IMG/VR virus record: IMGVR_UViG_3300019850_000189
Coordinates: 125,376-189,375 of that record
Reading direction: 5' to 3' (one strand)
DNA: 64,000 bases
Source: a virus
Shown here in pieces: positions 3,791-49,656 of the stretch (position 1 is its first letter; every line of letters starts with the position of its first letter). The notes under the pieces were generated by a model. The model saw nothing but the letters and a program-made list of their open reading frames with translations. It did not search any database and was not told the DNA's origin. Made by a program: the position numbers and the translations under genes.

Positions 3791-3804
3791 TACTGAAGAA
3801 TCGT

Positions 3805-3987: not shown

Positions 3988-3988
3988 A

Positions 3989-4216: not shown

Positions 4217-4232
4217 TGAATGGAGAGCCGAG

Positions 4233-5021
4233 GTGGAACTCACAGGTAAAAAACTCAATATTATAACAAGTTGTTATAATAATTTAAATTGTAAACATTG
4301 CTATGTTGATGCATATCTGCCATTGACGGATAATGTATATAACAAGAGGGAAATCGCCAGAATTTTCGATTATTTTAATTCCAAGGGTGTAAATGACGTA
4401 TCATTTATCGGTGGCGAGCCGCTAATGAATACCTTTCGTCTCATGGAAATGTTGAAAATGGGATTAAATTATTTTCAACATTTCTCCTTACTTACCAATG
4501 GCATAATGCTGGAAGAAGCGTTGCTGGATCAGTTGATAGAATTGGGTCTCGCAGAATTAAAAATTAGCCTGTTTTCATTTAATGGAGAAGAGTTCAACAG
4601 CTTGGCTGGTTTGATTAGAAAAATGTATATTCCCAAAGATATAATTGCATATGCCAACAGTAAGCTTACAACTATCCTTTATGTTCCTATTTTTAGTTCG
4701 GAGCTTGGTTATTTAAATAGTAAGGTATTTGAAGGCTTTGACGATTTTATGGCAAGCACCAATAGCAAAAATATCACATTCCTATCCACACTTCCAAATC
4801 AATTCGAAACTATGGATTTTTATAAGAATATAACTGCAGCAGGTAAATTGATTAAAGCAGAGAAGCACCTTGAGATATTTAATACAGGCAAGTATAATAT
4901 TGGATTTTTAGATATTGTCTCGTACGTCAATGAACCTGGTAGATTTTATCTATATCCAGATTTAAAAGTTAGAACAAGCCTTGCCACTCTAGACAGCATA
5001 TACGAAATTTCACAGGGATAA
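4233..5021 (+). CDS. radical SAM protein with CX5CX2C motif
   Basis: CYNNLNCKHCY, FIGGEPL, LLTNG; GTG start at 4233 after GGAG-containing RBS. Confidence 0.75.
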   Translation: MELTGKKLNIITSCYNNLNCKHCYVDAYLPLTDNVYNKREIARIFDYFNSKGVNDVSFIGGEPLMNTFRLMEMLKMGLNYFQHFSLLTNGIMLEEALLDQLIELGLAELKISLFSFNGEEFNSLAGLIRKMYIPKDIIAYANSKLTTILYVPIFSSELGYLNSKVFEGFDDFMASTNSKNITFLSTLPNQFETMDFYKNITAAGKLIKAEKHLEIFNTGKYNIGFLDIVSYVNEPGRFYLYPDLKVRTSLATLDSIYEISQG

Positions 5022-5695: not shown

Positions 5696-6694
5696 ATGAA
5701 ACGTTTAATTCTTGGTTGTGGCCAGACAGGTTCACGCCTTGCTGAAATGTTTAAGAGTAAAAATGATGATATTATCACATTTTCAACCGCAGTAGAGGAT
5801 GCCATCGGCTTAAGTAATAATATTCAAGTTTCTGATGAAGGCTCGGGACGTAACTACAACATCGGCCTTAGACTATGGGCCGAAAAGAAGGAAGAAATTG
5901 CTAAAATTCTTGAGCCTTATGAACGTACACGTATTGTATATTTTGCCGCTTTAGGCGGTGGAAGCGGCAGCTCATCAATTAGAATTGTTCTTAATCAGTT
6001 AACACGTCAAAAAAACAAAATTTTATTTGTTGGCATTCTGCCATTCTTAGCCGAGGCAATTCCAGCAACCGCAAATGCAGTTCGGTCCATGCAGTCTCTC
6101 GTATATTATCAAGACAAATGTTCAATTATGTTATTTCCAAATGAACTAATTGGTAAATTTACAGCAAGAGACTATACGGCTATTAACGATCATATAATAG
6201 GCGCCATCAGATGCGTTACAAATCTTAATAGCGAGCTGAATGATTCCAGTTTATATACACCATTATCCATAGATTATCTTGAAGCGGATTCGATTGCTTA
6301 TGCGGGTGGTTTTGTCAATGTTTCTTTTTCAAATTTGGAGGAAGAATCACTTAAATTCATCGGTTATGGCAAGATAAATGAAGCAAAGAATATTCTTGTT
6401 GCGCGCTCTGTATACAGCAAAATAAAACAAGCAGAGGTAGATTCTGAAGCTAACAAACTAATTGAAGTTGTCAAAAAGATAAGTGGTAGAGCCCGCGGGG
6501 CAAGGATTCTTTTTGGTATTATCAGAAATAATTATGATAATATTCTATATATTACCATAGCTGCTGGTCTCAAAATAGGGCACCTGATAGATAAATATAA
6601 AAACCTAGCTATTGACAGAGTGACTAATTACAGAGCAGAAGAAATGCATGAGGATATCATAGATAAAGATGAGAATAAATTCCTTAATGTTTAA
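5696..6694 (+). CDS. tubulin/FtsZ-family GTPase (PhuZ/TubZ-like)
   Basis: N-terminal ILGCGQTGSRLA, signature ALGGGSGSS, EGSGRN, T7-loop-like SIDYLE. Confidence 0.8.
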   Translation: MKRLILGCGQTGSRLAEMFKSKNDDIITFSTAVEDAIGLSNNIQVSDEGSGRNYNIGLRLWAEKKEEIAKILEPYERTRIVYFAALGGGSGSSSIRIVLNQLTRQKNKILFVGILPFLAEAIPATANAVRSMQSLVYYQDKCSIMLFPNELIGKFTARDYTAINDHIIGAIRCVTNLNSELNDSSLYTPLSIDYLEADSIAYAGGFVNVSFSNLEEESLKFIGYGKINEAKNILVARSVYSKIKQAEVDSEANKLIEVVKKISGRARGARILFGIIRNNYDNILYITIAAGLKIGHLIDKYKNLAIDRVTNYRAEEMHEDIIDKDENKFLNV

Positions 6695-8323: not shown

Positions 8324-8674
8324 ATGATGCGCAAGCGAAGAGCACTATATGCGTTCAATTACATAACCATTTCTCTTATGGCATGTTACAGCATAATTAA
8401 TAATATTTCGATTCTAGCTGGAGTTATAATGGTTATAATCAGTTTTATATTTTTATTTCTCCTTGTAACATATATATTCAGTAAAGAAGAGGGAGATTAT
8501 TATATGGCTTCTGCTGTTTTAAATACTATATTAATAATTGTGTTTTTCGGTATTGCAATTCTTGCGAGTGCTATGCATATACCCAAAGTGCTCTACATAA
8601 TATCATTAATCTTAGGGGTCATGTTTAGCATAAACTTTATAAGCGTAACAAATAAAAATAATTCCAGGGAGTAA
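8324..8674 (+). CDS. membrane protein (about 4 TM segments)
   Basis: four long hydrophobic stretches; AGGAG RBS. Confidence 0.65.
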   Translation: MMRKRRALYAFNYITISLMACYSIINNISILAGVIMVIISFIFLFLLVTYIFSKEEGDYYMASAVLNTILIIVFFGIAILASAMHIPKVLYIISLILGVMFSINFISVTNKNNSRE

Positions 8675-8676
8675 AA

Positions 8677-9564
8677 ATGAATAAAAAGCTTAATATAAGC
8701 TATGAAAAAAGTTTTGAATTAAAATGCGGTACCAATGAGCACCAAGCTGCAGCTCTCTATGCTGGGGATGAAATGGACATACCCCGAAAAGTTAGTGGGG
8801 GCAATTTAACATACAATGATTTATTGGATATGGATGTGGCCGCCAACATTGTTGCAGAATTCAAAGAACAAGCTTTCGCAATAACTGAGATGGCTAATCC
8901 AGTTTGTGCTTTCTTGTCGGTCAACCCAGCCAGAGTACTTTTAGAATCAGCCAGTGACAAGATAAATCTAAATGGCAAATGTATTGCCACTAATATGAAA
9001 ATGGGCAATGGCATTATTAGGTATTTTATGGAAAGCGGAAATGTTCCAGAATCGGTTGTAGCTCCCTCATATGATGACTATGGTTTGGAGCTTGCGGTAA
9101 AAAATCTTCCGAAGCTCAAAGTTTATAATACAAATGTGAGACAAATGGCATTTACCGAAATGCGCGTAACAAGATGGGGAATTCTGTGGCAGGAGGCAGA
9201 TAACATTCCCGAAAAACTCAATAATGATGAAAAGCTGGCGTGGGCGGTTGTTAAACATGCCAGAAGTTATGCTGTAGTATGGGTAAAGAATAATACAACT
9301 GTTAGAATTATGCATTCACTTAATAGCATCAATGATGCTATTTCTAATAATATGAGTGAAATGATCTATACTAATTATAAAAATAAAATGTTTAAGCTAT
9401 ATGATGCCATTGTCGCAACCGATATCCCATTCAAGAACGAACAGGCAGCAATGCCCCTCATTCAAAAACACAAAAAAACAATCATATTTCCTGGGACACT
9501 ATATGGAGATGAGCCTACCAAAAAACTAAAATTGATGAAATTCAATCATCTACGTTTAAGTTAA
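8677..9564 (+). CDS. degenerate PurH-like AICAR transformylase domain
   Basis: ELKCGTNEHQAAALY ~ LRYGEN.HQ.AA.Y; LTYNDLLDMD ~ LSYNN..D.D; VVAPSY; LAWAVVKHARSYAVV; catalytic KH replaced by EM; no IMP cyclohydrolase domain. Confidence 0.7.
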   Translation: MNKKLNISYEKSFELKCGTNEHQAAALYAGDEMDIPRKVSGGNLTYNDLLDMDVAANIVAEFKEQAFAITEMANPVCAFLSVNPARVLLESASDKINLNGKCIATNMKMGNGIIRYFMESGNVPESVVAPSYDDYGLELAVKNLPKLKVYNTNVRQMAFTEMRVTRWGILWQEADNIPEKLNNDEKLAWAVVKHARSYAVVWVKNNTTVRIMHSLNSINDAISNNMSEMIYTNYKNKMFKLYDAIVATDIPFKNEQAAMPLIQKHKKTIIFPGTLYGDEPTKKLKLMKFNHLRLS

Positions 9565-9610
9565 ATCTATTTCTTTTTCCATGGTAACTTCTTACAAAAA
9601 TTCACTTCAG

Positions 9611-9644
9611 AAAGATCACAGCCTTTAGGCAGTGATTAGTTCAC
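9611..9644 (+). mobile_element. solo IS200/IS605-like right-end hairpin remnant
   Basis: AAAGATCACAGCCTTTAGGCAGTGATTAGTTCAC: stem with CTTTAG loop ending TAGTTCAC; no tnpA/tnpB in window. Confidence 0.55.
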
Positions 9645-10019
9645 TAACGACATTTAGTTTGGCTTTCACGTCATTATAGGCAACACCTTCATCAACCAAC
9701 TTTTTAACTCTCTGCAGATAAGATTTTCAATTTGCGCCAAGCCTTTCGGATGCTTTATTCCATACGATAAGCCAATCGCCGCGCGACAAAGTTTTCTTTT
9801 GTGCAATGGATGGTTTCTTCGCTTTAGTGTCAGCCATTTGAGCCGGGGCTTTTCTACCTCTCATAACTCTTATTGCAATTGTAATGGCCATCTGAGCTTT
9901 GGATTCTTCGTCACTCACTGCTTCCTGTTGGTTCAATATTGAAACATAAGCATGATATCAAAAGGCCTAATTTCGCCTTTGGCGTAATAGGCTTCATCTA
10001 TAACATTTGTTAAATCCAC
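9625..10019 (-). pseudogene. disrupted hypothetical gene (about 130 aa reconstructed)
   Basis: GTG start with GAGGT RBS; one-base frameshift near 9936; in-frame TGA at 9727-9729 (LGAN*KSYLQRVKKLV); 3' end runs into IS-like hairpin. Confidence 0.5.
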
Positions 10020-10020
10020 T

Positions 10021-10407
10021 TTATTTTACCTCGATAGATTTTATTATTGCCCGTTTTATTTCAAAAAAATTAAATGTATCTATTGTTTCAATATGCGAAA
10101 AAGCTTTTCTTTTAGATAGATCTATTGAGTACTTATCTTCATTTCTAAAAAACCTCATGAATTCTTCAGTTGTAATTTCTATAAGCTCTCTTTGAGATGG
10201 ATCGACAGCTTCCAGTGAAGTAATCCAGCCAGTAAGGACGCCTTTATCGCCAGGCTCAGTTGTTATAACAACATCACTTAAGATTAATATTCTATCATCA
10301 GGATTATGACTATCTAGCTTATATTCTCCTGCATATGACCATTCATAGACAAAAACCAGCTCGCCCTTTGAAACACGATCGAATTTACTTCTATTATATA
10401 TTATCAT
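10021..10407 (-). CDS. hypothetical protein, tandem paralogue of 10441-10809
   Basis: MIIYNRSKF...VFVYE...ILILSDVVITTEPG...LTGW. Confidence 0.7.
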   Translation of the reverse strand: MIIYNRSKFDRVSKGELVFVYEWSYAGEYKLDSHNPDDRILILSDVVITTEPGDKGVLTGWITSLEAVDPSQRELIEITTEEFMRFFRNEDKYSIDLSKRKAFSHIETIDTFNFFEIKRAIIKSIEVK

Positions 10408-10440
10408 AGCTCCTGCCGTTTCGATTTAGTGGAAACCCTT

Positions 10441-10809
10441 TCATTTTAGTTCAATACCCTTGATCATTATTTTTTTCAAGTTACTATATTCTGAGCCCTC
10501 TAATACCTCAACGTGGCTGAGACTATTCACCGCTCCAAAATCCCAACTCCATTGACGCACATCCAGAAAAAAGTCTGACAATGCTTCGCGGGTTATTTCT
10601 TTAATATCCTCTTTCGTTGGTCCAACCGCCTCCATATGGAAACCCCATCCGGTTAGGTACCCCGGCCTGCCTGGCTGGGTGGTAATGATAATTTCACTTA
10701 GCACCAGCACTTGTTCATGCGGAGAGTCATAATCAAATTCATGTTCATAAACATATACTATACTTCCCGCTTTGATGTTAATAAATTTTTTTCTATCATA
10801 GATTACCAT
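10441..10809 (-). CDS. hypothetical protein, tandem paralogue of 10021-10407
   Basis: MVIYDRKKF...VYVYE...VLVLSEIIITTQPG...LTGW. Confidence 0.7.
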   Translation of the reverse strand: MVIYDRKKFINIKAGSIVYVYEHEFDYDSPHEQVLVLSEIIITTQPGRPGYLTGWGFHMEAVGPTKEDIKEITREALSDFFLDVRQWSWDFGAVNSLSHVEVLEGSEYSNLKKIMIKGIELK

Positions 10810-11207
10810 AATTTCTGCTGTTTTGCCTCCTCTGGATAGTATACTTTTTCCAGATAAGCATTAATAACTTTAAGTTTTTCACTATTAGTTTTAGAATTTC
10901 TTAGAGCATCCAATATGCCAGATTTGAAGTATAACTCTGAGGATCCATATAGTATAATTTCATAATTAGCAAAATTATTTTGCTTGGATAATACTCCTAA
11001 AATATAAACCACATTCTGTGTTATTTCATATTCATTATTACCAAGTTTCTTATCTATATAGATAATTTTATTGGCATCATCGATAGATACATTCGCTCCT
11101 GCAATCCCGTATTCTGATAGAAATGACTGTAAATCACCTTCTGTCATTGAAAATACAGGAATGAATACCATCAAAAATATTATTAATAAAACAACTTTTT
11201 TTATCAT
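10803..11207 (-). CDS. putative secreted protein
   Basis: signal-peptide-like MIKKVVLLIIFLMVFIPVFS. Confidence 0.6.
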   Translation of the reverse strand: MIKKVVLLIIFLMVFIPVFSMTEGDLQSFLSEYGIAGANVSIDDANKIIYIDKKLGNNEYEITQNVVYILGVLSKQNNFANYEIILYGSSELYFKSGILDALRNSKTNSEKLKVINAYLEKVYYPEEAKQQKLW

Positions 11208-11467
11208 TATTTTATATCCAATTTGCCCTTTATTTTGGCTAAGTCAATCCTAATTTCGCTAACATTTGATTCATTCAGCGCTATTCCGGCACCATTTCGT
11301 TTGATCTCGGATTGCACTGTTAGTAAATGTTCCTCTATGCGAATAAGTGTTTCTCTGTTCTTGCGCGAACGGTTTAATGATGTGCTGACGAAAGTCGCCG
11401 CGCTTGCTATAATTGCTGCTATTATGATCATTGCCAGCTGTTTGTTAAAGTCCTTGAAGAAGCTCAT
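11207..11467 (-). CDS. single-TM coiled-coil protein
   Basis: TM helix followed by heptad-like tail. Confidence 0.55.
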   Translation of the reverse strand: MSFFKDFNKQLAMIIIAAIIASAATFVSTSLNRSRKNRETLIRIEEHLLTVQSEIKRNGAGIALNESNVSEIRIDLAKIKGKLDIK

Positions 11468-11534
11468 TTTTATGTCCTTTTGGCTTAAGATTCATTATTT
11501 ATCTTTGTTGCTTGTTACATATATATTCGCAAAG

Positions 11535-11861
11535 ATGAAAGAATTAAAATATAAATGTGTTTGTGGTGCCGCTTTTGAGGAGCTTGAAGAGCTCCAGTCT
11601 CATCAAATGGTATGTGTGCTTTTTCGCAAAAGCATAATAAAGCAGATGCCTAAACACAAAGAGAAACAACAGATTAAAGTGGGAGTAAAAAATGTTTCAA
11701 ATAAGATTATCAAAGACGAAAAACCTCCGGGAGAAGAAGAGCATATTAAAAGAGTGCCTTATAAAACAACAAGACGCAGCACAAAAAGCTCATCGGGTGC
11801 TTCATTGGACAAGAGCAACAATCAGAAGATTGAAACGCCTGAAAATGAGAAATCCAGCTAA
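11535..11861 (+). CDS. zinc-finger-like protein
   Basis: YKCVCGAAF......SHQMVC; CATATATA at 11518 upstream. Confidence 0.55.
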   Translation: MKELKYKCVCGAAFEELEELQSHQMVCVLFRKSIIKQMPKHKEKQQIKVGVKNVSNKIIKDEKPPGEEEHIKRVPYKTTRRSTKSSSGASLDKSNNQKIETPENEKSS

Positions 11862-16209: not shown

Positions 16210-16878
16210 ATGACAGATTCGGAACGGTTTATGGAGATATTTCACCGCAATATCCTAACCAAATATGAAATAGAAAACGAAATTGTCAGATCTGGGTTCA
16301 ACACAAGCTTTGAGGAACTGCTTAAAAAAGGCTATATTAGGCCAACAGGAAGATCATATCAAAATCATGAGTTTTATGCCCCTAATGTCCAATCATGGAT
16401 AAAGGCAAACTATCCTGTATCCAGATTGGAAGCTATAGATTTAGGGGCCAATTACCGAATGCCTCTCCGGTTCGAGAAATGGTTTGTTGATTATTTACGT
16501 AATGAGCTTAAGTGGAATCAAAATCAAATCCTATTGTGGTGGAACTCGGCATTTGGCCGTTCTTTTGCCGATGCTTACATGCCCAAAGCGATAACAGAAC
16601 TTAATACCAGGCAAAAATTTATAAATGAGATTAAAAAAGAAAAAGAGCGTTTTCAGAATGAACTGGCGACCTTACGCAAAGAAGAACCGAATTATAACAA
16701 GCAATCTGCAGAAAAATATTATAGTCAATCCTCCAGTCTAACAGCAAATAATATGATCAGTTCTATTTTTCACAAGGAGGCCATCATAAAGGATGCTGTA
16801 ACACTTAAATATTTTGCACGGTTTAAACCTGAATTCATTAAATACACCTTTGAAAAAAGTCCGCACTACATCCTATAA
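16210..16878 (+). CDS. hypothetical protein
   Basis: AGGAG RBS. Confidence 0.6.
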   Translation: MTDSERFMEIFHRNILTKYEIENEIVRSGFNTSFEELLKKGYIRPTGRSYQNHEFYAPNVQSWIKANYPVSRLEAIDLGANYRMPLRFEKWFVDYLRNELKWNQNQILLWWNSAFGRSFADAYMPKAITELNTRQKFINEIKKEKERFQNELATLRKEEPNYNKQSAEKYYSQSSSLTANNMISSIFHKEAIIKDAVTLKYFARFKPEFIKYTFEKSPHYIL

Positions 16879-16907
16879 AATACTTATGAATCACAAGGAG
16901 ATCAAAA

Positions 16908-17777
16908 ATGAGTGTAAATCAAACAACAAAATTACCTGGTGATGCGCAGCTGCTACTGCAACATCAAAAAACGCTGTATGATACGAGTATCAAACAACAA
17001 CGTAAAAATTCATTGATCACAATCATAGTTCTGGGCGTTATGCTGTCAATAGCTTTATATTGGTTAGTCAATAACTATCTCAAGTGGCAGATGGAAAAAA
17101 CCGCCACAACACGCGCCTATGAATTGGAAATAGAAAAAGTTAACAATAGGGCGCACTATATTAAAAATGCCATTATTGGTGATTATTATATTGACGATAA
17201 AAAGAAATTTGAAGATTTTATGTTGACGGGCTCCTGGATAATTACAAAAAAATATCATGAGTATAAAAAAAAGATTAAATCTAATAAATTTGCCTCCATG
17301 AATAACAAAGAAATAAGAAAATATCTGGAGATAAGTTTCAAAGGTGCGCAGCTTGTGGGAATTGATCCATATCTGCTTCTGGCTGTGGATAGTGTGGAGA
17401 GCGAATATGATAAAAAAGCCAAAAGCAAGGCTGGGGCCCTAGGGATTTGTCAATTTATGCCGTTAACAGCCAAACTAATTGCAAATTCTTCTACTAATTA
17501 TACAATATTACAGGTAGATGGTTACGAACCAAAAAGGTTGTATGATCCTGTGTATTCAAAAAAGCTACAAATAAGATTTTTACATGATTTATTTGTGTAT
17601 TTTGATGGCCGAGTTGAATGGGTCTTACTGGCTTATAATTGGGGCCCAGATGTAACCGCTAAAAAAAAGTGGGCCGATGGTGATGCTGTTTTTTCTGATC
17701 TAGACAAGGAACAGCAAGAATACGCTACAAAAGTACTTAATGTCTATAATCAACTCAAGATGGGAGTCAAGAATTAA
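16908..17777 (+). CDS. membrane-anchored lytic transglycosylase (SLT family)
   Basis: N-terminal TM; LAVDSVES (catalytic E), AGALGICQFMPLTA, LAYNWGP. Confidence 0.85.
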   Translation: MSVNQTTKLPGDAQLLLQHQKTLYDTSIKQQRKNSLITIIVLGVMLSIALYWLVNNYLKWQMEKTATTRAYELEIEKVNNRAHYIKNAIIGDYYIDDKKKFEDFMLTGSWIITKKYHEYKKKIKSNKFASMNNKEIRKYLEISFKGAQLVGIDPYLLLAVDSVESEYDKKAKSKAGALGICQFMPLTAKLIANSSTNYTILQVDGYEPKRLYDPVYSKKLQIRFLHDLFVYFDGRVEWVLLAYNWGPDVTAKKKWADGDAVFSDLDKEQQEYATKVLNVYNQLKMGVKN

Positions 17778-17889
17778 TGAGATGATAGATTATATAATCC
17801 CGATGTCTTTGTGGCAATTTGAGAAGCCAGAGGATAGAGAATTCAAGCAATGCTTGGTTTTAACAAATCTACAACCATTGTGGCCAAAG
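17770..17889 (+). pseudogene. C-terminal remnant of an HNH endonuclease
   Basis: IDYIIPMSLWQFEKPEDREFKQCLVLTNLQPLW matches HKIYQSYWKFERPEDPEFKQCWALCNLMPIW of the HNH at 35358-36149. Confidence 0.65.
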
Positions 17890-17925
17890 ATAATTTGTGT
17901 GAATATAACCACATGGAGGCATAAA

Positions 17926-18249
17926 ATGGCACCTTGGGGCATAGCAGATGTAGATAAACACAAAAAAGGTCTCACCAAAAAACAGAAAAAGAAGTGGGTA
18001 GCTATCGCCAATGCTATACTCAAGAGAACTGGAAATGAAGGAATGGCGATCGCCACTGCCGACAAAAGATCAGTAAGTGAAGACATGGCATTTATGATAG
18101 AATACATCGCTACCAGTGAAGGTTTAGCCGGTTCAGATAAAATAAATAAATCTCCCATTGACACTTTTGATATTGGTAATAGACACATGATAAATCTAGA
18201 TATTCCACTCAAGGCTAAAAAATCCAGAAAACGTAAAAAAAAAGCATAG
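17926..18249 (+). CDS. ChaB-like/head-associated small protein
   Basis: GGAGG RBS; MAPWGIADVDKHKKGLTKKQKKKWVAIANAIL...EGMAIATA. Confidence 0.45.
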   Translation: MAPWGIADVDKHKKGLTKKQKKKWVAIANAILKRTGNEGMAIATADKRSVSEDMAFMIEYIATSEGLAGSDKINKSPIDTFDIGNRHMINLDIPLKAKKSRKRKKKA

Positions 18250-18360
18250 CTACACCTACCTTTAAATTCCAAGAGCCAATACGTCAGACCGGTATGGGAA
18301 GGTGGCTCAAAGATCCCAATTATTTCCGTAACATAACCAGAAGCTCTTATTAGCACAAAG

Positions 18361-18369
18361 CATATATAG
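18361..18369 (+). promoter_or_regulatory. CATATATAG motif
   Basis: intergenic, before MazG start. Confidence 0.45.
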
Positions 18370-18377
18370 GTGGTACA

Positions 18378-18711
18378 ATGACACTTAATAAATATCAAAA
18401 ACTTGCATGGAAGACTGCATTGTATCCCAACAAGAAAAATAATCTTTATTATCCTTCCCTTGGTCTGGCAGGTAAATCTGGCGAAGTGTGTAATATAATC
18501 AAGAGAGCTATGCGGGATGACAATGGATTCTTAACAAAAGAAAAGAGAGAAAAACTTAAAAAGGAAATTGGGGATGTTCTGTGGTATGTTGCCGCGCTAT
18601 GCAAAGAATTAGATCTGGAGATGGAAAAGGTTGCCGAGGTTAATATAAATAAGCTTCTTTCAAGAAAGAAAGAAAAGAAATAATATTCAGGGAAGTGGTG
18701 ATGATAGATGA
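18378..18711 (+). CDS. mazG: MazG-like NTP pyrophosphohydrolase, frameshifted near 3' end
   Basis: LNKYQ, LGLAGKSGEV, EIGDVLWYVA, NINKL.SR; conserved tail RNNIQGSGDDR* lies in another frame after a GAAA repeat. Confidence 0.8.
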
Positions 18712-19136
18712 ACAGCACTATCAAAAAGCATGGCAAGATCATATTTAGGTCCAGCCTGGCTGTACGATTAGATTCGCATCCAATTATTTATGCGGTATCA
18801 TTCAATGATAACCCACAAGATGCCGAGTGGCAATTATATAGCTATGAAGAAGAAAAATTGTATCCGGCCAAATTCACCAACGTATATAGATTTTACAATG
18901 AAATGGCCTGTGTAGTCACGAGATCAAAACCGCAATACCAATACAACTTTGTAAATAAAAAAGCAGAACTTATTTTTCCAATTGATTTTGACAGTGTGGA
19001 AAAAACCCTCTTTATAAAACCCGTAATGGGGGCCTTTGTTAATGACAAGCACTTTCAAATAGCCATAACCGGCGGAATTAATGCCACCAAAAAGGAACTG
19101 GCGAAACTTCTCTTGGAGTATCATGATGCACACTAA
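18708..19136 (+). CDS. hypothetical protein
   Basis: ATG overlaps the TGA of the alternate-frame MazG tail. Confidence 0.6.
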   Translation: MNSTIKKHGKIIFRSSLAVRLDSHPIIYAVSFNDNPQDAEWQLYSYEEEKLYPAKFTNVYRFYNEMACVVTRSKPQYQYNFVNKKAELIFPIDFDSVEKTLFIKPVMGAFVNDKHFQIAITGGINATKKELAKLLLEYHDAH

Positions 19137-19289
19137 TAAAACATCCAAGCGCGGCCCCGGAGCAATTAGCCCACAGGGACCGGCGGAATCAATACCACCA
19201 AAAAGGAACTGGCAAAACGTCTCTTGGAGTATTATGATGCCCGTTAATAAAATATCTACGCGCGGGCCCGGAGCAACTAGGCCACAGGG
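19068..19289 (+). repeat. tandem direct repeat, 2 x 111 bp
   Basis: ACCGGCGGAAT(T/C)AAT.CCACCAAAAAGGAACTGGC... at 19068 and 19179. Confidence 0.9.
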
Positions 19290-42117: not shown

Positions 42118-42126
42118 CATATATAG
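42118..42126 (+). promoter_or_regulatory. CATATATAG motif heading the radical SAM cluster
   Basis: immediately after upstream stop; AGGTG RBS follows. Confidence 0.5.
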
Positions 42127-42133
42127 GTGTGAA

Positions 42134-42580
42134 ATGGGATATATATGGACAAATATAACTGCCGGCGCGACTAGGATAAAAGGCCAACATTTGCAAGAAG
42201 TTGTAGATAATGTTAAGAACGCGGAAACGCAACTTGAACTAACCGCGCCAGAAAAGCACACCTGGTCTGCCGGTATGGATTCATTCAATAAGATTCCTAT
42301 ATTACATGATGAGTGGCAGGAGCTTAGAGATGCTACCGATAATTTAGATGATAAAAATTATTGTAGAACTCATGATGTCACACATTATGTTGGCTACGAT
42401 GCCGATCTGCATAGTACATATTGTCCAACGCATTATCCAGATTATTGTAATGACCTGCATATAGGTCATCACGGCTCGCATTTAATATATTATTTTAGTG
42501 GCTATAATTATGATTACCATGGAACACACAAAACTGCATACTACACTAGCAAGGATTCTGTAGTACATCATGGTCACTAA
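42134..42580 (+). CDS. tetrapeptide-periodic His/Tyr/Cys-rich protein 1 (putative modification substrate)
   Basis: duplicated W...I..H..E...D leader, then 18 in-register 4-mers (CRTH DVTH YVGY...). Confidence 0.7.
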   Translation: MGYIWTNITAGATRIKGQHLQEVVDNVKNAETQLELTAPEKHTWSAGMDSFNKIPILHDEWQELRDATDNLDDKNYCRTHDVTHYVGYDADLHSTYCPTHYPDYCNDLHIGHHGSHLIYYFSGYNYDYHGTHKTAYYTSKDSVVHHGH

Positions 42581-42609
42581 ACTATTGTGTGAAGCAGAAG
42601 AGGGAATAA

Positions 42610-42924
42610 ATGGCATTTTCTTGGGTGGAAGATATAAGTAGCGGCGCTTTAATCACTAAAGCGGCTATAGATGAGATCAGGAGTAATGTTGATTCTGTTG
42701 TTGATAACTTATCATCATGTTTTACGCATTACGCTACTTATGATGTTGATTTACATTCCGGGCATGATGGTGCACTATACACTACCTACCAAAATAATTT
42801 GTATACGGGCCTTGATAACGCTTTGTATTCGTATTGCAACGCAAATTACCCAGGCTATCATAATGGTTTAGATTCAACATATAAAGCTTCACATTATACC
42901 TCGTTTTATGCCGATCATTTGTAA
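42610..42924 (+). CDS. tetrapeptide-periodic His/Tyr-rich protein 2 (putative modification substrate)
   Basis: MAFSW..I..G..I....I.EIR..VD leader, then CFTH YATY DVDL HSGH... Confidence 0.7.
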   Translation: MAFSWVEDISSGALITKAAIDEIRSNVDSVVDNLSSCFTHYATYDVDLHSGHDGALYTTYQNNLYTGLDNALYSYCNANYPGYHNGLDSTYKASHYTSFYADHL

Positions 42925-42962
42925 TTGAATATAATGGAGGATTTTTGTACCAATAACTAACA

Positions 42963-44303
42963 ATGAATACTAAAACACTCACTTTGTATGTATCTGACAT
43001 TTGTAATTTAAAGTGCAAATATTGTTTGTGGCCTAAATTCCCACAAATAATGCAACGTGAAAATAAAGACGTCAGATCTTGGATTAGCAGCGGCCGCATG
43101 GCTAATGCCATACAACAGTTCTCATCTAAAAAAAGCTTAGAATTTTTAAGTTTATGGGGCGGCGAACCGACACTAAATTTTGATTTGCTTGCTCCAGAAC
43201 TCGCTAAAATTGCCGACAAATATCCAAATTTATCTGCAATTAGTTTTTCTACAAACTTGAGTACCACTCTCATAGTAAATTACATTATCGATTTTATAAC
43301 ACACATCAATATTATACGCCCTATTAAATTCGACATACAGATATCAATAGATGGCCCTAGTTTTATAAATGATATAAATCGACGCGGAGCTTCTGCCGCG
43401 AAAATTGTTGATAACATAAAATATTTTACTAATAAACTCATAGATAAAAATCTGATTGATAATGTAACATTACATACTAAGTCAACTCTTACTATTGATA
43501 ATATTGTTACACTTCTCAAATATGACGACAAATTTTTCGAGTTTTTCGAGTTTTTCGATCGAGAAAGCGCAAAATGTGGCAAAGTATTTTACACGATGCC
43601 TTCATATGTTTTTCCTGGGCAATATACGCAGAGGCAAGGTGAGATATACGCATTATTCTTATACAAACTTCTTAACTTTGATCTAAATTTGAAATATATA
43701 ACTTCTCCTATAGAAGATGATTTTGTTGTTCGCGCGAAAATGTTGCTGCAAGCATTTGATCGCATAAGACATCGCAGATTTATGGGCGAGTTTTATTCTC
43801 AAGCACATTGTTCTGCTGGTCGCGAGGGTTTTGCCATAGACAAAGATGATCAATTGCATATATGTCATGGCACATTCTTCACTAATGAAGATGTTTTACA
43901 ACAAACAAGTTATAACAAAAATTTCTTCGAAGAAGAAGTTGGTTTTTCTCATGATAAGTTTAATAGTTTTGTCAGGGATGTCGGAGTGATTGATGGTAAT
44001 AATGATTTAAAGCGGTTAAGATTCCAATATTGTAACAGAGCGATACATGATAATTTCGCTTTCATATTGTCCTATAACGAAGCCATGGCTCGTGAGCTGG
44101 TCCTTAGCGGCCAATTATCTAAGACATATATAAACGATGATATAAGAAGTTTACTCTGTGTTTTTGCAGCTTTTAAGAATGGATGTTTAACAGATAATTT
44201 ATGGCAGAATGGAAATATGGCCATATCCAATTCGTCAATATTAAAACTTCTTGGCAATGGCGCTTTCGAATTAATAATGAATTATTTAAAGGATATGCAG
44301 TGA
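42963..44303 (+). CDS. radical SAM protein with partial SPASM/Twitch domain
   Basis: ICNLKCKYC, LWGGEPTL, ISIDGP...ND..R, HCSAG.....ID.D.....CHG. Confidence 0.9.
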   Translation: MNTKTLTLYVSDICNLKCKYCLWPKFPQIMQRENKDVRSWISSGRMANAIQQFSSKKSLEFLSLWGGEPTLNFDLLAPELAKIADKYPNLSAISFSTNLSTTLIVNYIIDFITHINIIRPIKFDIQISIDGPSFINDINRRGASAAKIVDNIKYFTNKLIDKNLIDNVTLHTKSTLTIDNIVTLLKYDDKFFEFFEFFDRESAKCGKVFYTMPSYVFPGQYTQRQGEIYALFLYKLLNFDLNLKYITSPIEDDFVVRAKMLLQAFDRIRHRRFMGEFYSQAHCSAGREGFAIDKDDQLHICHGTFFTNEDVLQQTSYNKNFFEEEVGFSHDKFNSFVRDVGVIDGNNDLKRLRFQYCNRAIHDNFAFILSYNEAMARELVLSGQLSKTYINDDIRSLLCVFAAFKNGCLTDNLWQNGNMAISNSSILKLLGNGAFELIMNYLKDMQ

Positions 44304-45652
44304 CGTTTAAAGCAGAAGAAAAACAACTTTATTTGGACTTTATCGAAAGATATTACTTTGTTCACTGGAGAATGGATCCGCCATACAAATCAGAATATAA
44401 TACTTCCGTGGAATTATTCTTAACTCCTGACTGCGATTTGCAGTGCAAATATTGTTACCTCAATAAATTTGGAGATAAACTATATAGTAAAAATATTCGC
44501 GATTTGAAACAAGTGGTTGAAAATACTCAATTATTATTTGATTATTTCACCAATAATAAACTTTTTCCCAATACAATAGAAATTTTCGCCGGCACCATTC
44601 CAATCTCCGCATATGAAGAAATTTTTGATATAATATATAAGTATGTGAATAGCGCACCAATGCAAAAAGAATTCAATATTATTATTCCAACGAATGCTCT
44701 ATTTGTGCGTGATGAACGCAAAATAAAAATGCTTATTGATTGGACAAAAAAATTTTCAAATATCAATTCTACAATGCACATTTCATATTCATTCGATGGC
44801 AAATATGCAGATCCATTATCCAGACCGGCAAAAAATAAATATTTCAAATATGATGATGAGTTTTATGAGCGAATAAAAGATTTTGCTAGAATAGTGCGGC
44901 CTGGTTTTCATCCAATGATATCTCCGGAAAACATTCATGTATGGCCCCAGAATTTTGATTGGTTTCTAAAATATATAGGTGATACCTACAACTGTGATGA
45001 AAAAGAAGCATTAAATAGCTTATATCTGCTCGAAGTAAGAAATCCAAATTGGCAGGAAAAAGAATTATTACATTTGGCCGACTTTAATTATTATATGACA
45101 AAAAGAATTTTTGATATATATGATGGCAGTCCATCACAATTTGTTAATAAATTTCTCAGAACCACGGCCCTTAATTGGTATACAAATTTTGTTGGTACGA
45201 TAGGTAGAGGCATTGGTTGTTCTATTCAATCCGGGATGTATATCAGGATGGGAGATCTGAGTATTGTACCATGCCACAGAACATCATGGCCGGATTACGA
45301 GAGTGGCCGATTTACCGTAGAAAATAATCAAATAGTCGGATTGGAGCCTGTAAACCCATGGACTCATCTGGCTATAGCCTCATTCAAAGCCGAAAATGGA
45401 TTTGTTTGTTCCCACTGTCCTATAAATTCACTTTGCAGTTTTTATTGTCTGGGCGCAAATTTAGAATTTAACAGAAATTTATTTGTTCCGATACCGAGTG
45501 TATGTAGAATGGAGTATTACAAAATTAAAAGTGTAATCAATAGCTTTAAGCTTTTGGGAATATGGCCGGCATATTATAGATATTTAGAATCCAAAGATAC
45601 AGGTATGCCCAGTTTGTCTAAGCTGAGACAAGCCGAAGCACTAATCATTTAG
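44300..45652 (+). CDS. radical SAM/SPASM protein
   Basis: DCDLQCKYCY, SFDG, GCSI......G.L..VPCHR, CSHCPINSLC...CLG.N...C; GTG start overlapping upstream TGA. Confidence 0.9.
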   Translation: MTFKAEEKQLYLDFIERYYFVHWRMDPPYKSEYNTSVELFLTPDCDLQCKYCYLNKFGDKLYSKNIRDLKQVVENTQLLFDYFTNNKLFPNTIEIFAGTIPISAYEEIFDIIYKYVNSAPMQKEFNIIIPTNALFVRDERKIKMLIDWTKKFSNINSTMHISYSFDGKYADPLSRPAKNKYFKYDDEFYERIKDFARIVRPGFHPMISPENIHVWPQNFDWFLKYIGDTYNCDEKEALNSLYLLEVRNPNWQEKELLHLADFNYYMTKRIFDIYDGSPSQFVNKFLRTTALNWYTNFVGTIGRGIGCSIQSGMYIRMGDLSIVPCHRTSWPDYESGRFTVENNQIVGLEPVNPWTHLAIASFKAENGFVCSHCPINSLCSFYCLGANLEFNRNLFVPIPSVCRMEYYKIKSVINSFKLLGIWPAYYRYLESKDTGMPSLSKLRQAEALII

Positions 45653-45663
45653 AGGGGTATAAA

Positions 45664-46245
45664 ATGACCTATGAAGAAGTAAAACAAGTTTTAAAAGGTA
45701 ATATTTCAAAATATGTAAATTCTTTATTTCCAGATCTATCTATCAATTTTAAGGCTTTGATTGATTATTATATGAATGATCTCGAAAAGCTCATGGATGA
45801 TAAGAAAGTTGATGATATTACAGAACAACTCACAAATGATACTATCACTGTGGCATCTAGAATACGCCATGTACTGATCATGGAAAATATCAGTAAAGCA
45901 GAAATGGACTTTATCACATCTCTCAACTATTTAATATGGAATTGGGCCAAAGCCACCAATACAGAGCAAGCTTTAGCGATTTGTGCACAGAATGACATTC
46001 TGGTAGAAACACAATTCGACCTGAAACGCAACATAACTATTATGCGTCAGTTGGTAGTTGAGGCCGAAAGGATTCTCGCATTTAAACCCAAAGATATGGT
46101 TTTTTCAGGCATGTATTTGGAAAAAATAGATAAATATTTTGAATTTATGAAGAAAAACAAATTAGATACATATGGCTCATTGAATCCGGATGCATTAAAA
46201 CAATTTGAAAAGGAAAAAAATAATGAAAATGATTCTAAAAAATAA
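45664..46245 (+). CDS. helical accessory protein of radical SAM cluster
   Basis: GAGGGG RBS, co-oriented. Confidence 0.6.
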   Translation: MTYEEVKQVLKGNISKYVNSLFPDLSINFKALIDYYMNDLEKLMDDKKVDDITEQLTNDTITVASRIRHVLIMENISKAEMDFITSLNYLIWNWAKATNTEQALAICAQNDILVETQFDLKRNITIMRQLVVEAERILAFKPKDMVFSGMYLEKIDKYFEFMKKNKLDTYGSLNPDALKQFEKEKNNENDSKK

Positions 46246-46384
46246 AAATGGTGAATCTTTTGAACTGGCAATTCCAGATCAAGAATTAATATCCGCTTCT
46301 CAATATCTAGATACTAGCTTGAAGGCAAATGTCGCAAGAATATCGATAGTGTTGGATACACTAAGTCTGTTGCGTAATCCCTAA
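46223..46384 (+). CDS. small protein (53 aa, MKMILKNKNGESFEL...)
   Basis: read manually; AAGGA RBS; bridges 45664 ORF and the GT. Confidence 0.45.
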   Translation: MKMILKNKNGESFELAIPDQELISASQYLDTSLKANVARISIVLDTLSLLRNP

Positions 46385-46386
46385 AA

Positions 46387-47349
46387 ATGAAAATTTTATG
46401 CCTTTTCTATGATGGTGGATATGGTGTAACTAGAGCATCCAATTTGATTTTCAATGCCATTAAGAATGAATACAAAGATACCATAAAACATCTCTCGAAC
46501 ATCAACAATACTTATGTCATATATGACATAATTAAAAATCATAACCCGGATGTTATTGTCACACAGGACTATTTTTCCTGGATTATGAATGCCATCAGCT
46601 GTTACAAAATCGATCACCACGTAAAATCTATTTTATATTCTCTATATATAGATGATATCATCCCCGATGGTCTTGAAACTTTTGACGGTTTTTTTGTTCC
46701 TGAAAATAACTCCATGAAATATTCGAGAAATTGCGTGGCGGCCGCCAGCAGTGTATTCTATTTACCATTGGAGCCTAATTTCAGATATGATATAGAATGG
46801 TCCAAGAGAGAAAACAATTTTATTTATGCCGGCCGAATAGACAGAACGAAACTGAATCTGAAAATATTATCATTACTCGATAAACATCACCAAACGCTGC
46901 ACGTATATGGTGCAATAACTGACCAAAAACATTTTTCTAAGTGCCGCCGTTTTAATTCTTTCAAGTATATGGGTGTGGCCACAACGAATATGATGCCATC
47001 CATTTTTAATAAATACAAGTTTCACATACTATACTCCGAAACTGATTGCTTTTCAATTAGCAGTTTAGAAGCGGCCGCCTGTGGAACAATTCCGATTACT
47101 ATTGGGAGAATACTTAAATGGATGAAAGATTACAGTTTTCAATTTAGCAACATACATGAATTCAGCATCATGCAGCCGGCCTTGCTTATACACGATTTGA
47201 CCAAGTTTTCTATAAATATAAGCAACAAAATAGACAGCAACTATAGAGTTGCGCCCTTTATTGAACAATTCGGTAGAGCGCTTAAGAACCCTGTAAAAAA
47301 CATAAAACCTGTGATAAAAAGTAATTTTATTTCTCATCCACAAAGATAA
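46387..47349 (+). CDS. GT-B glycosyltransferase (GT4-like)
   Basis: NPDVIVT, FIYAGRI...K, YSETDCFSISSLEAAACGTIPI. Confidence 0.8.
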   Translation: MKILCLFYDGGYGVTRASNLIFNAIKNEYKDTIKHLSNINNTYVIYDIIKNHNPDVIVTQDYFSWIMNAISCYKIDHHVKSILYSLYIDDIIPDGLETFDGFFVPENNSMKYSRNCVAAASSVFYLPLEPNFRYDIEWSKRENNFIYAGRIDRTKLNLKILSLLDKHHQTLHVYGAITDQKHFSKCRRFNSFKYMGVATTNMMPSIFNKYKFHILYSETDCFSISSLEAAACGTIPITIGRILKWMKDYSFQFSNIHEFSIMQPALLIHDLTKFSINISNKIDSNYRVAPFIEQFGRALKNPVKNIKPVIKSNFISHPQR

Positions 47350-47368
47350 TAGAACAGTGGAGCAGCAT

Positions 47369-47800
47369 ATGAAACTAAGTCGAGTTATGAAAGAGGCAAC
47401 CAGAATCATCAGTGTGGATCTAAGTAAATCGAGCGATCCTATTGCGCACCCCAAAGCCGGTTTAGGCACCAATAAAATTATCCGTATAGACAAAAACAAA
47501 GAAAGAATTATCCCAAAGGTGCTCAGCAGACAAGAACTTAAAGATCTCGAATATTATATACCAAATCTACCCGATGGTGCCTGGGATACCATCCCCCCTG
47601 AATTCAAACGTTTTTATCATGATTCCATGAATAGCTACCCCGAAGTCACATGGCAGCCTCTTACTTCTCTTGCTAAATGGAGACTTTTGTATAATAAAAT
47701 GAAGAAAAAATATCCAAACATCAATTGGGGAAAAATATACCCACGCAAATTGGCTAACAAACTGCCTCCAGAAGTGCCGAAAGCCTCTAAATCTTTTTAA
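47369..47800 (+). CDS. hypothetical protein with MKLSRVMKE leader
   Basis: GGAG RBS. Confidence 0.55.
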   Translation: MKLSRVMKEATRIISVDLSKSSDPIAHPKAGLGTNKIIRIDKNKERIIPKVLSRQELKDLEYYIPNLPDGAWDTIPPEFKRFYHDSMNSYPEVTWQPLTSLAKWRLLYNKMKKKYPNINWGKIYPRKLANKLPPEVPKASKSF

Positions 47801-47854: not shown

Positions 47855-48538
47855 ATGGATAATGAAATTATGTTAAAGGACCGGCACAAACTGGATAAAA
47901 CACAAAAATGCCAGGATTGCGGCCGAGATATAGATTATGTATTTATAATGTCTGATGATCGTGAGCTATGTCGAACTTGTGCAGCTAAGAGATGGCAGAA
48001 ACGGTTCGCCCCCGAAGAGATATGGGAAGAACTTGATTATAATAGAAAAGCAACTTGGGAATCGGCTGTAGTTAGATATAAAATCATTCGTCATTATACA
48101 CCTCTAAAGGAATCGGACTTGGCCACCAATGTAAAAAAATATCCATTTCTATTAGAATTGACCAAGTATAGAAGAGCCCATCCAGAAATAGATAGAATTA
48201 TAGAGCTCGCCAATGAACATGAAATAATGCCGCGGCATATCAAAAATATGAAATGGCTGCTCGAAAATATAGATAAATTCACCGACCAAAAATATGTTAA
48301 CAATCTATCAAAAAAGATACAACTGCTAGCAAGAATCTCTATTGTATTCCGTTCTTATTATACAGGTCTTCTGAAATATTTATATTTGCATAACTATCTA
48401 ACACAAAAACAACTATCATCAATAGAAAAGAACAACGAGAGATTCAAAAAAAGGATAGCAAAGGCCGCTCTAAGAAGAAATTTTAGATTCGCTGATGGTC
48501 CAAGAGGGCCAATTTTGAGAGAGAATTACGGTAAATGA
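47855..48538 (+). CDS. hypothetical protein with N-terminal Zn finger
   Basis: CQDC...CRTC. Confidence 0.6.
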   Translation: MDNEIMLKDRHKLDKTQKCQDCGRDIDYVFIMSDDRELCRTCAAKRWQKRFAPEEIWEELDYNRKATWESAVVRYKIIRHYTPLKESDLATNVKKYPFLLELTKYRRAHPEIDRIIELANEHEIMPRHIKNMKWLLENIDKFTDQKYVNNLSKKIQLLARISIVFRSYYTGLLKYLYLHNYLTQKQLSSIEKNNERFKKRIAKAALRRNFRFADGPRGPILRENYGK

Positions 48539-49656
48539 ACTATTGGTATCCCACGAGCTATAATACAAATTCTTACTACATCACTGGAGAAGCAGTAGAG
48601 CTTCCTTCATTGCTTGATGTAATTTATAATAACGCAGATTATACCAGTTATCAGAATTTTCGGTTTTATAGTAAGAGCCCGGAAGAGATTCAGCTTATGC
48701 TTGCGGCATACAGAGCGTGTTATAAATATAATAAATCAACTAACAATGAATCAGTATTGTGGCTTGTTGATAGCCCACGAATGACGCATCTAATTCTGAA
48801 TGAGATGGTAGAAGCTGAGATGCGTGGATATAGTAATATCGTAATTCTTGGCATGAAAAATGTAGATAGTAATTTTTTCAAAATCAAAGATGTCTCTGGT
48901 ATAATTAAGCGCATAAAAGACTTAATTAAGAAACATAATGTAAAGGCTGTGATTACGCCATGCGTTAATAAAATCCATAATCGCATATTATCAGAAATTG
49001 ATATCAAGAAAATTGGTATACAGCATGGCACCGGGACCTGGGTCGAAAAGAATTTACTTAATGAAGTGAACATGCACTTTAATTATGGCAAAATAAGCAA
49101 CAAAGAATTTAATAATCCCAAATCTATCATAGCTGGTTATTCTCCTACTAAATTGTTCGAATTTTATCCGAAGGCGGATGAGAATTATATTCTATATGCC
49201 ACTCAAGGTCGCGCTTTTACCAATAAAAAGAATATAATAGAACAATTAGGTATGCTGCGTCTGCAGGATGATTTTGGAATGCCCATAGTTATCAAAGAAC
49301 ATGCCGATGCGACAGGAGAGTTTGCCGGCACAGTGGAAAGAGTTTATAGCGAATCCGGAAATATAAATACAATAGAGCTTGTACGAAAAGCATCAGTGGT
49401 AATCACCAGCTGGTCAGGCACCGGCCTGGAATCTATGTTTTTCAATAAGCCTACCATTATATTGGATACACAAAATGACGGGGGTAAATTCTATAAGACT
49501 TCTGGTTTAGTGATTCCCATGTCATATGAAGTCTTGAAGGCGAGAACATATTTTTTTCTGAGCGGCAACAGGTTAGATATCTCGGGCTACAAGAAAAGAA
49601 TTAATTTTGAAGGCGGCAAACTTGCCAGCAAAATAATCATAGATGCCGTTAAATAA
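48535..49656 (+). CDS. GT-B-fold surface-carbohydrate/glycosyltransferase-like protein
   Basis: GIQHG, IAGYS, ILYATQ, VIKEH, ASVVITSWSGTGLESMFFNKPTIIL. Confidence 0.6.
   Translation: MNYWYPTSYNTNSYYITGEAVELPSLLDVIYNNADYTSYQNFRFYSKSPEEIQLMLAAYRACYKYNKSTNNESVLWLVDSPRMTHLILNEMVEAEMRGYSNIVILGMKNVDSNFFKIKDVSGIIKRIKDLIKKHNVKAVITPCVNKIHNRILSEIDIKKIGIQHGTGTWVEKNLLNEVNMHFNYGKISNKEFNNPKSIIAGYSPTKLFEFYPKADENYILYATQGRAFTNKKNIIEQLGMLRLQDDFGMPIVIKEHADATGEFAGTVERVYSESGNINTIELVRKASVVITSWSGTGLESMFFNKPTIILDTQNDGGKFYKTSGLVIPMSYEVLKARTYFFLSGNRLDISGYKKRINFEGGKLASKIIIDAVK

Follow-up and report, generated by a model that had tools for sequence, protein, structure and literature searches.

A viral contig of 189 kb from IMG/VR (IMGVR_UViG_3300019850_000189) ends in a 64,000-nucleotide stretch, called the window below, that carries a compact cassette encoding two tetrad-repeat proteins (precursors A and B), two radical S-adenosylmethionine (SAM) enzymes (rSAM1 and rSAM2), an all-helical accessory protein (H190) and a glycosyltransferase (GT). 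The cassette is probably one member of an unnamed, widespread protein-maturation system, in which the two radical SAM enzymes modify the two repeat proteins. An earlier prediction, made from the window alone, had located the open reading frames (ORFs) of the cassette correctly and had read them as a system that modifies two periodic proteins. That reading is strengthened by the co-occurrence of the five core genes in dozens of distant loci, despite permutation of their order.

A search of a 5.8-billion-protein collection returned 484 homologues of rSAM2 (E ≤ 1e-3). About 100 loci were collected and their ORFs scanned with hidden Markov models (HMMs) of the four core parts, and co-occurrence was counted in the 60 non-redundant loci that possess a true rSAM2 orthologue. 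rSAM1 adjoins rSAM2 in 53 of these 60 loci and H190 was detected in 44, while precursors recognized by the leader HMM are present in 33 loci, 31 of which have two. The 27 loci without a leader match comprise 15 in which a Ser/Thr/Gly/Asn/Asp/Tyr/His-rich candidate with divergent modules (e.g. Y..LNAVR) lies beside the enzyme pair, 8 in which the enzyme pair lies at the contig end or no more than ~1 kb from it and so has scant or no upstream room, and 4 with room and no candidate precursor. Overall, precursor candidates defined by the leader HMM or by composition occur in 48 of the 60 loci; the original prediction had named enzyme pairs that usually lack such precursors as an outcome that would count against it, and the opposite was found. 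The same parts appear in at least two orders, PRE-PRE-rSAM1-rSAM2-H190 and rSAM1-rSAM2-H190-PRE-PRE (PRE, precursor). When we searched for recurrent neighbours around the cassettes, only the GT recurred. The IMG/VR relatives were found by a profile-based scan; single-sequence pattern scans with rSAM1 and precursor A gave none, and neither megablast nor tblastn matched anything among INPHARED phages when the locus, rSAM1 and precursor A served as queries.

Both enzymes carry the CxxxCxxC signature (C14/C18/C21 in rSAM1; C45/C49/C52 in rSAM2, counted from GTG 44300). rSAM1 belongs to the radical SAM superfamily by its Pfam score (Radical_SAM, PF04055; 4.6e-10, 40.3 bits vs. a cut-off of 29.5), and rSAM2, which reaches only 16.3 bits, keeps CxxxCxxC invariant in 40 homologues. 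Seven further cysteines of rSAM2 are invariant (C307, C325, C370, C373, C379, C383 and C402) and include a Cx2Cx5Cx3C segment, so that this enzyme carries the full, seven-Cys SPASM set; its score against the SPASM HMM TIGR04085 is 14.5 bits (E = 0.037), below the cut-off of 27. For rSAM1, TIGR04085 gave no match in the NCBIfam search, and the three invariant downstream cysteines in the homologue alignment suggest a Twitch-like enzyme with a single auxiliary cluster. The original assignment of two CxxxCxxC enzymes with SPASM or Twitch cysteines therefore stands, with the full set in rSAM2 and an apparently reduced one in rSAM1.

Peptide and protein maturases are the best matches of both enzymes, in HMM and in structure searches. 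The AF2 model of rSAM2 (mean predicted local distance difference test score, pLDDT, 92.8) was matched by Foldseek to CteB (1.8e-10), to ChlB, which has been solved with its leader peptide, and to anSME; CteB (5wgg) is also the solved structure nearest to rSAM1. PapB (NF047865) is the top NCBIfam match of rSAM1 (66.5 bits; 40.6 bits for rSAM2; cut-off 340), and the NCBIfam lists of both enzymes consist mostly of peptide maturases (PapB, CcpM, RumMC, QhpD, HxsB, DynA, YhhB and others). MoaA and viperin score lower (35 bits and 27–30 bits, respectively, for rSAM1), and the PADLOC models gave generic viperin-core similarity only. Thus, the enzymes do not group with the cofactor- or nucleotide-modifying families, the other sequence-based outcome that had been expected to count against a maturation system. 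Neither enzyme has an N-terminal RiPP recognition element (RRE; RiPP, a peptide made on ribosomes and modified after translation).

The two precursors are paralogous, as had been proposed, with 33% identity across the core in BLASTP (E = 3e-6) and alignable N-termini. An alignment with relatives shows that each starts with a module of the form M-[AG]-F-x-W ... E-[IV]-[RK]-x-N-x-D. A-type precursors, conserved in most loci, possess a second copy that ends ...ELRD..DYADD.NYC[RK].H, and B-type precursors have a single copy that ends ...DN..C.T[HD]; W5, E22 and the junction cysteine C37 are invariant in 24 B-type sequences. At the junction cysteine begins a series of tetrads, whose positions 1 to 4 in 47 precursors are occupied mainly by [D/N], [S/T/A/G], [T/G/S] and [Y/H/V/D], each class filling ~45–70% of its position. 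Tyr and His together account for 51% of position 4 in the viral branch, and Val, Asp or Ala is often found there in homologues from the candidate phyla radiation (CPR). Aromatic residues are spaced 4 and 8 apart ~1.5 times as often as expected, and 2 and 6 apart ~0.5 times as often, in the window proteins and in 150 family representatives, which bears out the periodicity seen originally. No tandem repeat was found at the DNA level in the precursor genes; the repeat register is therefore maintained at the level of the protein.

Read across the tetrad boundary (positions 4-1-2), the repeat unit is (H/Y)-x-(S/T/small). The motif [HY]-x-[STAG] occurs 13 times in the core of precursor A, compared with 6.8 ± 1.8 in shuffled cores, and 11 times in that of precursor B, compared with 5.9 ± 1.7; these counts were matched by 3 and 8 of 2000 shuffles, respectively. 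Cysteine is not periodic: besides the junction Cys, which alone is conserved, each core has 0–3, and position 1 is Cys in just 11% of tetrads. Repeated thioethers along the core were considered and rejected, as periodic Cys is absent from the cores. The junction Cys could, speculatively, form a single thioether or serve as a cluster ligand. None of the cores is basic; they are rich in Tyr and either acidic or neutral. The phage precursors have neither a signal peptide nor a peptidoglycan-binding domain. A profile of the N-terminal module retrieved 374 representative clusters, nearly all of 60–250 aa with the module at residue 1. This ~30-residue module (...I.A.H..ELR..VD.V) was also seen in tandem within larger secreted proteins (P0243 and P0204), one of which combines an fn3 domain with a signal peptide; the module may thus be a small domain of general use and not a leader alone.

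H190 was modelled by AF2 with a pLDDT of 92.1 and has seven helices. It has no match in Pfam, NCBIfam (E ≤ 1) or PHROG; Foldseek returned nothing for its fold at E ≤ 0.001 and the ESM Atlas nothing usable, and its best VIA Z score of 8.8 (9jht_B) is under the ~13 typical of helical bundles. An RRE or PqqD-like domain was rejected, because the confident model is without β-strands. A predicted complex of H190 with the B-type leader region scored 0.02 against a mark of 0.32 and counts neither for nor against binding.

A GT had been predicted as part of the cassette, and the window copy is itself weakly recognizable. Pfam Glycos_transf_1 (PF00534) and Glyco_trans_1_4 match at E ~1e-3, and its PF00534 score of 18.5 bits is below the threshold of 26.4. 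The assignment is supported by its relatives: PF00534 matches are precomputed for the GT homologues in L007, a cellular CPR contig, and in L010, a phage contig, and the window GT aligns with both (BLASTP 1.3e-13 for the L007 domain). This GT1-type family occurs in or beside the cassette in ~12 loci, and in two of them, L007 and L016, it is fused to the C-terminus of rSAM1. PDB sequence searches with the GT and with a downstream 373-aa protein gave nothing meaningful. The closest non-identical relative (L003:6076-9156) has an insertion that separates the GT from the homologue of window 48535-49656. It comprises one more radical SAM/SPASM gene, the third in that locus, together with genes for a transaldolase/FSA-family protein (TAL_FSA) and a CMP-sugar-type cytidylyltransferase (CTP_transf_3), which hints at a dedicated supply of activated sugar.

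The genes are closely spaced, with gaps of 29, 38, −4, 11, 141 and 7 nt between 42134 and 47800 (Table 1). The rSAM1 stop and rSAM2 start overlap by 4 nt (caGTGAcg), and because of this overlap, and because the resulting length equals that of all homologues, rSAM2 most likely starts at GTG 44300 and not at ATG 44201. The small ORF in the 141-nt gap, which the original prediction had counted as a 53-aa part of the system, has dropped out: it has no detectable similarity to same-position ORFs in L003, the one relative compared, and no Pfam, NCBIfam or PHROG match. No convincing terminator was found upstream of the next promoter-like motif. The 147-aa ORF that precedes this motif probably belongs to the same transcription unit and lies outside the conserved cassette, as no homologue of it adjoins other cassettes.

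Table 1. Features of the cassette and its borders, in window coordinates
Feature	Coordinates	Strand	Remarks
Promoter-like motif CATATATAG	42118..42126	+	8 nt before precursor A gene; putative promoter
Precursor A, 148 aa	42134..42580	+	two N-terminal modules, junction Cys77, 72-aa His/Tyr-rich core of period 4
Precursor B, 104 aa	42610..42924	+	one N-terminal module, junction C37, 68-aa Tyr/His-rich tetrad core
rSAM1, 446 aa	42963..44303	+	CxxxCxxC at residues 14-21 (43002-43025); downstream Cys 283, 301, 408
rSAM2, 450 aa from GTG 44300	44300..45652	+	CxxxCxxC 44432-44455; Cx2Cx5Cx3C 45407-45448
H190, 193 aa, all-helical accessory protein	45664..46245	+	conserved; usually immediately 3' of rSAM2
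59-aa ORF	46205..46384	+	unsupported as gene
GT-B-like glycosyltransferase, 320 aa	46387..47349	+	frequent cassette accessory
147-aa ORF	47357..47800	+	final gene ahead of next CATATATAG at 47842; position only

The cassette is found on at least 30 IMG/VR contigs and in 33 GTDB species representatives, all of them metagenome-assembled genomes (MAGs). The carriers in GTDB are Parcubacteria, Paceibacterota, Colwellbacteria and Saccharibacteria; Iainarchaeum, Nanohalarchaeota, Woesearchaeota and Nanoarchaeia; Omnitrophota, Thermoplasmata and Thermoprotei; and several Clostridia. L006 and L007, on contigs of 238 and 291 kb with NifU, POR, RecG, RNase Y and type II secretion genes, are clearly cellular, and L024 is a prophage whose cassette has a tail protein on one side and holin/endolysin on the other. 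The original remark that no exporter is encoded holds for the phage, but not for cellular relatives: TatC and TatA lie directly upstream of the cassette in seven cellular loci, five of which also encode a small protein with a twin-arginine signal. In two CPR loci (L006:4195-4464 and L007:3653-3883), small RRKFLK twin-arginine proteins are encoded between TatA and the precursors; such proteins could be hitch-hiker carriers for precursors that have no signal of their own. In three CPR MAG loci (L032, L033 and L041), a membrane-anchored protein precedes the radical SAM pair and H190 and takes the place of the tetrad proteins. The L032 protein (3803-4678) bears 58 consecutive His-x-Ser (HxS) triplets, that of L033 (4146-4580) a short HxS run, and that of L041 (3919-4569) an Asp/Ser/Tyr-rich tail behind the same anchor; literal HxS repeats were seen in L032 and L033 only, and none in the window. 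Because a dedicated TatA/TatC pair or a membrane anchor accompanies the cassette, the products of the cellular (CPR and DPANN) copies are almost certainly exported.

Variation among the relatives extends to copy number and gene structure. One 51-kb phage contig (L010) has two rSAM1-rSAM2-H190 trios (8655-11832 and 16434-19186), and L051 (3580-7853) has two H190 genes in the order rSAM1-H190-PRE-PRE-rSAM2-H190. A Zn-ribbon ORF recurs in ten loci. In L042, L052, L057, L064, L066, L067 and L068, mostly from gut IMG/VR records, the radical SAM genes are split into short ORFs under table 11, which may reflect stop-codon recoding or assembly errors. More distant jumbo-phage loci (L072-L100; IMG/VR, 140-280 kb) have two or three radical SAM genes that score 30-78 bits against the rSAM1/rSAM2 profiles and are probably different but related phage systems; in one of them (L089), a multi-module ELR-type protein is encoded beside the radical SAM genes.

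The window comes from a T4-like phage, with a Gp23-type capsid protein (E = 5.5e-73), tail sheath and large terminase within the first 45 kb of the contig. The cassette lies ~120 kb away from this block, among MoxR, topoisomerase and repair genes. The motif heading it had been described as late-like. The motif is real, with 7 copies of CATATATAG in the window (at 467, 5667, 7777, 18361, 42118, 47842 and 62821) vs. 1.08 expected, all on the plus strand and shortly 5' of ORFs. Over the whole contig there are 13 plus-strand and 3 minus-strand copies, and for 12 of the 13 plus-strand copies an ORF of at least 50 aa follows within ~60 nt, at a distance of 8–40 nt; the motif is usually an A-rich stretch followed by ACATATATAG, a form that differs from the T4 late box TATAAATA. 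The genes under the motif encode an SbcD-like nuclease, a UvsX-like recombinase, SSB, Hsp20, MazG, an exonuclease and a 332-aa protein (window 5696-6694) with a weak match to PhuZ tubulin (phrog_4733, E = 5e-4). Three virion genes were tested, those for capsid, sheath and terminase, and the 90 nt upstream of each are free of the motif. Because the motif heads replication, recombination and stress genes and is absent before these virion genes, the late-like reading is unsupported, and the suggestion of a virion fibre, which had partly drawn on that reading, is left without its main local support. Judging from the genes that follow it, the motif seems to belong to a replication-phase promoter class.

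From gene content, conservation, co-occurrence, cysteine signatures, fold class and repeat statistics, we infer how such a system might work. The N-terminal module of A and B, ending at the invariant Cys, would be the recognition element. The translationally coupled rSAM1 (Twitch-like) and rSAM2 (full SPASM), probably with H190, perhaps in an HxsD-like part, would then modify the side chains of the core repeats. Most likely each repeat would be modified once, with the (His/Tyr)-x-(Ser/Thr/small) unit of positions 4-1-2 as the target, because the same enzyme family serves HxS repeats and radical SAM enzymes are known to act on three-residue motifs centred on His or Tyr (PMC11499958). By analogy, this could link three residues as in triceptide/HXS cross-links, or be another C-H functionalization, after which the GT would add sugar to the Ser/Thr/Asn-rich core. 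Since no protease is encoded, the product probably remains protein-sized and retains its N-terminal module. In this phage it would probably be made before or independently of virion assembly, because its promoter motif is common to replication and recombination genes.

Several points weigh against this interpretation or narrow it. All named maturase HMMs score far under their cut-offs for both enzymes, so that the reaction type cannot be transferred from any of them, and the chemistry proposed above is drawn by analogy. A universal aromatic cross-link is impossible, because position 4 is often non-aromatic in the CPR homologues. H190 is not an RRE-type fold and is without known relative. The GT of the window is below its Pfam threshold, and GTs are absent from many cassette loci. 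Tail modules enclose the cassette in two or more other loci, a better fit to a virion role than to an exported effector, and T4-type phages can use several promoter classes for replication genes.

The alternatives differ from a maturation system of this kind chiefly in where the product goes or in what the enzymes modify. With the same enzymology, tetrad proteins could be components or decorations of tail fibres or of other structures on the virion surface, cross-linked for stability or adhesion. Consistent with this, the L008 cassette has as its neighbours a minor tail protein (phrog_11445, 1.2e-11) on one side and, on the other, a tail-fibre N-terminal domain (phrog_1980, 2.1e-15), the prophage cassette of L024 is flanked by a tail protein and lysis genes, and copies of the N-terminal module are found in large secreted fn3-type proteins. 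However, a site beside prophage lysis genes is a classic place for accessory (moron) genes, a virion role is impossible for the cellular CPR and DPANN copies accompanied by Tat genes, and in the present phage the cassette is far from the capsid/sheath/terminase block and shares its motif with SbcD, UvsX, SSB, Hsp20 and MazG genes and not with the three virion genes tested. When ten large proteins encoded near viral cassettes were compared with PHROG, only a homing endonuclease was recognized, which did not show a general location in tail modules. We regard maturation of a virion appendage as rather unlikely overall; for this phage, promoter class and distance from the structural genes argue against a classical late virion protein, although not decisively.

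An HXS-like conflict system, in which the matured repeat protein would act at the envelope to block the DNA entry of competing phages (superinfection exclusion or cellular defence), seems less probable still. The architecture agrees (two adjacent radical SAM enzymes, a small accessory protein and an exported, protein-sized His-repeat substrate; PMC13128918), the L032 HxS protein is encoded with the same enzyme pair, cellular loci have Tat genes or membrane anchors, and expression with early/middle-type genes would suit exclusion. Against this stand an HxsB HMM score of 39 bits vs. a cut-off of 370, the lack of any HxsD-like match and PADLOC results limited to generic viperin-core similarity; moreover, signal peptides and peptidoglycan-binding domains are absent from the phage precursors, no route of export is encoded in the phage cassette, and acidic or neutral Tyr-rich cores do not suit the electrostatic DNA-binding model proposed for HxsA. 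It is very improbable that the enzymes modify a nucleotide, DNA base, sugar or cofactor and that the repeat proteins are unrelated neighbours. The weak similarity of rSAM1 to MoaA and viperin, the sugar-nucleotide genes and third radical SAM gene near the L003 cassette, and the DNA hypermodification known from T4-like phages would fit such a role, but peptide-maturase models and structures outscore MoaA and viperin for both enzymes, repeat proteins accompany the pair across phages, CPR and archaea through changes of gene order, and where tetrad proteins are absent an HxS repeat protein substitutes. Maturation of the two repeat proteins thus remains our preferred reading, and the phage product may be a virion appendage, an HXS-like envelope effector for exclusion or an intracellular product. 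A more ambitious version, in which phages, CPR and DPANN alike make glycosylated and cross-linked tetrad-repeat proteins that act outside the cell or at its envelope in attachment or exclusion, is tentative and somewhat doubtful as a whole. Phages and obligate episymbionts (CPR, DPANN) all need attachment to, or defence of, a cell surface.

These results add a large unnamed family, which has no fewer than 484 homologues of rSAM2 and 374 clusters of precursors and whose parts are two enzymes, two substrates, a helper of unassigned fold class and often a glycosyltransferase. New findings are its distribution in CPR and DPANN and the link to Tat genes there, the variant with HxS repeats, the fusions of rSAM1 to the GT, the co-occurrence in numbers and the corrected promoter class. 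Radical SAM maturases are best known for small secreted peptides, and protein-scale substrates that retain their leader are reportedly just emerging (HxsA, QhpC, and protein thioethers of methanogens said to have been reported in 2026); to our knowledge, almost no secondary modification biology has been described in CPR and DPANN lineages. If one modification per 4-residue repeat is indeed made over 70–250 residues, this would be an undescribed pattern of radical SAM reaction. The five- or six-gene unit is defined and clonable, and offers a way to find new radical chemistry on His/Tyr/Ser repeats and a handle on what phages and episymbionts put on or near cell surfaces.

No model in Pfam, NCBIfam, PHROG or PADLOC names any part of the cassette beyond the generic radical SAM domain, and we found no description of it in the literature on phage, jumbo-phage, CPR and CXXX-repeat radical SAM systems. 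It works like the HXS, triceptide and CXXX-repeat systems and belongs to none of these families, because their membership thresholds are not reached. The closest described architecture is HXS (HxsD-HxsB-HxsC-HxsA; TIGR03976-03979), in which HxsA, a protein-sized, exported substrate with short His-containing repeats, is matured by HxsB, HxsC and HxsD, the accessory HxsD binding HxsC, and acts at the envelope, where it blocks phage DNA entry (Nat Commun 2026, PMC13128918). The HXS modification is a mass change of +8 Da of undefined identity (PMC13128918), which counts against a strictly aromatic reaction. The cassette likewise combines an adjacent radical SAM pair, a small accessory protein and a repeat-bearing protein substrate; a role in phage-host conflict is a feature of HXS, and the L032 relative bears the HxS triplets themselves. 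In contrast, the HxsB model (TIGR03978) gives 39.4 bits for rSAM1 and 15.8 bits for rSAM2 (cut-off 370), H190 is unrelated to HxsD (TIGR03976; no NCBIfam match at E ≤ 1), and the repeat period is 4, not 3. The cassette also has two paralogous substrates with a dedicated N-terminal module, no peptidoglycan-binding domain and often a GT, and it occurs in phages, CPR and DPANN, whereas HXS occurs in enterobacteria.

The triceptide systems (XyeB, GrrM/OscB, FxsB, YhhB, HaaB, HtkB and ChlB) are closest in the logic of the motif, as their radical SAM/SPASM enzymes act on repeated aromatic-x-x motifs that include His and Tyr (PMC11499958). ChlB is among the top structural matches of rSAM2, and both cores of the window are enriched in [HY]-x-[STAG]. 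However, the triceptide HMMs (TIGR04496, TIGR04261, TIGR04269, NF041707 and NF041718) give at most 34 bits against cut-offs of 310–450, the best being YhhB (34.0 bits vs. 445). Triceptide systems, defined by an aromatic-x-x motif with a cross-link from ring to Cβ, use one enzyme on short peptides, usually with a protease or exporter, whereas the cassette has two enzymes, substrates of 100–280 aa and no protease, and the key position is non-aromatic in many homologues. In repeat period, the closest system is CXXX-repeat (TIGR04115 maturase; PF27846, tSAM_targ_Cxxx_rpt), whose presumed target also has period 4; there the periodic residue is Cys, unlike in the cassette cores, and TIGR04115 scores 22.7 bits for rSAM1 and 16.5 bits for rSAM2 (cut-off 350). 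A mostly viral atlas cluster with PF27846 resembles precursor A at the level of features (score 0.84) and serves as a lead only. Finally, the thioether maturases CteB (SCIFF), PapB (ranthipeptides, with cores rich in Cys and Asp/Glu) and QhpD are among the best HMM or structure matches of both enzymes, although scores are far under the cut-offs, an N-terminal RRE is absent and the cores have too few Cys for repeated thioethers. Among these, QhpD cross-links a protein subunit that stays uncleaved afterwards.

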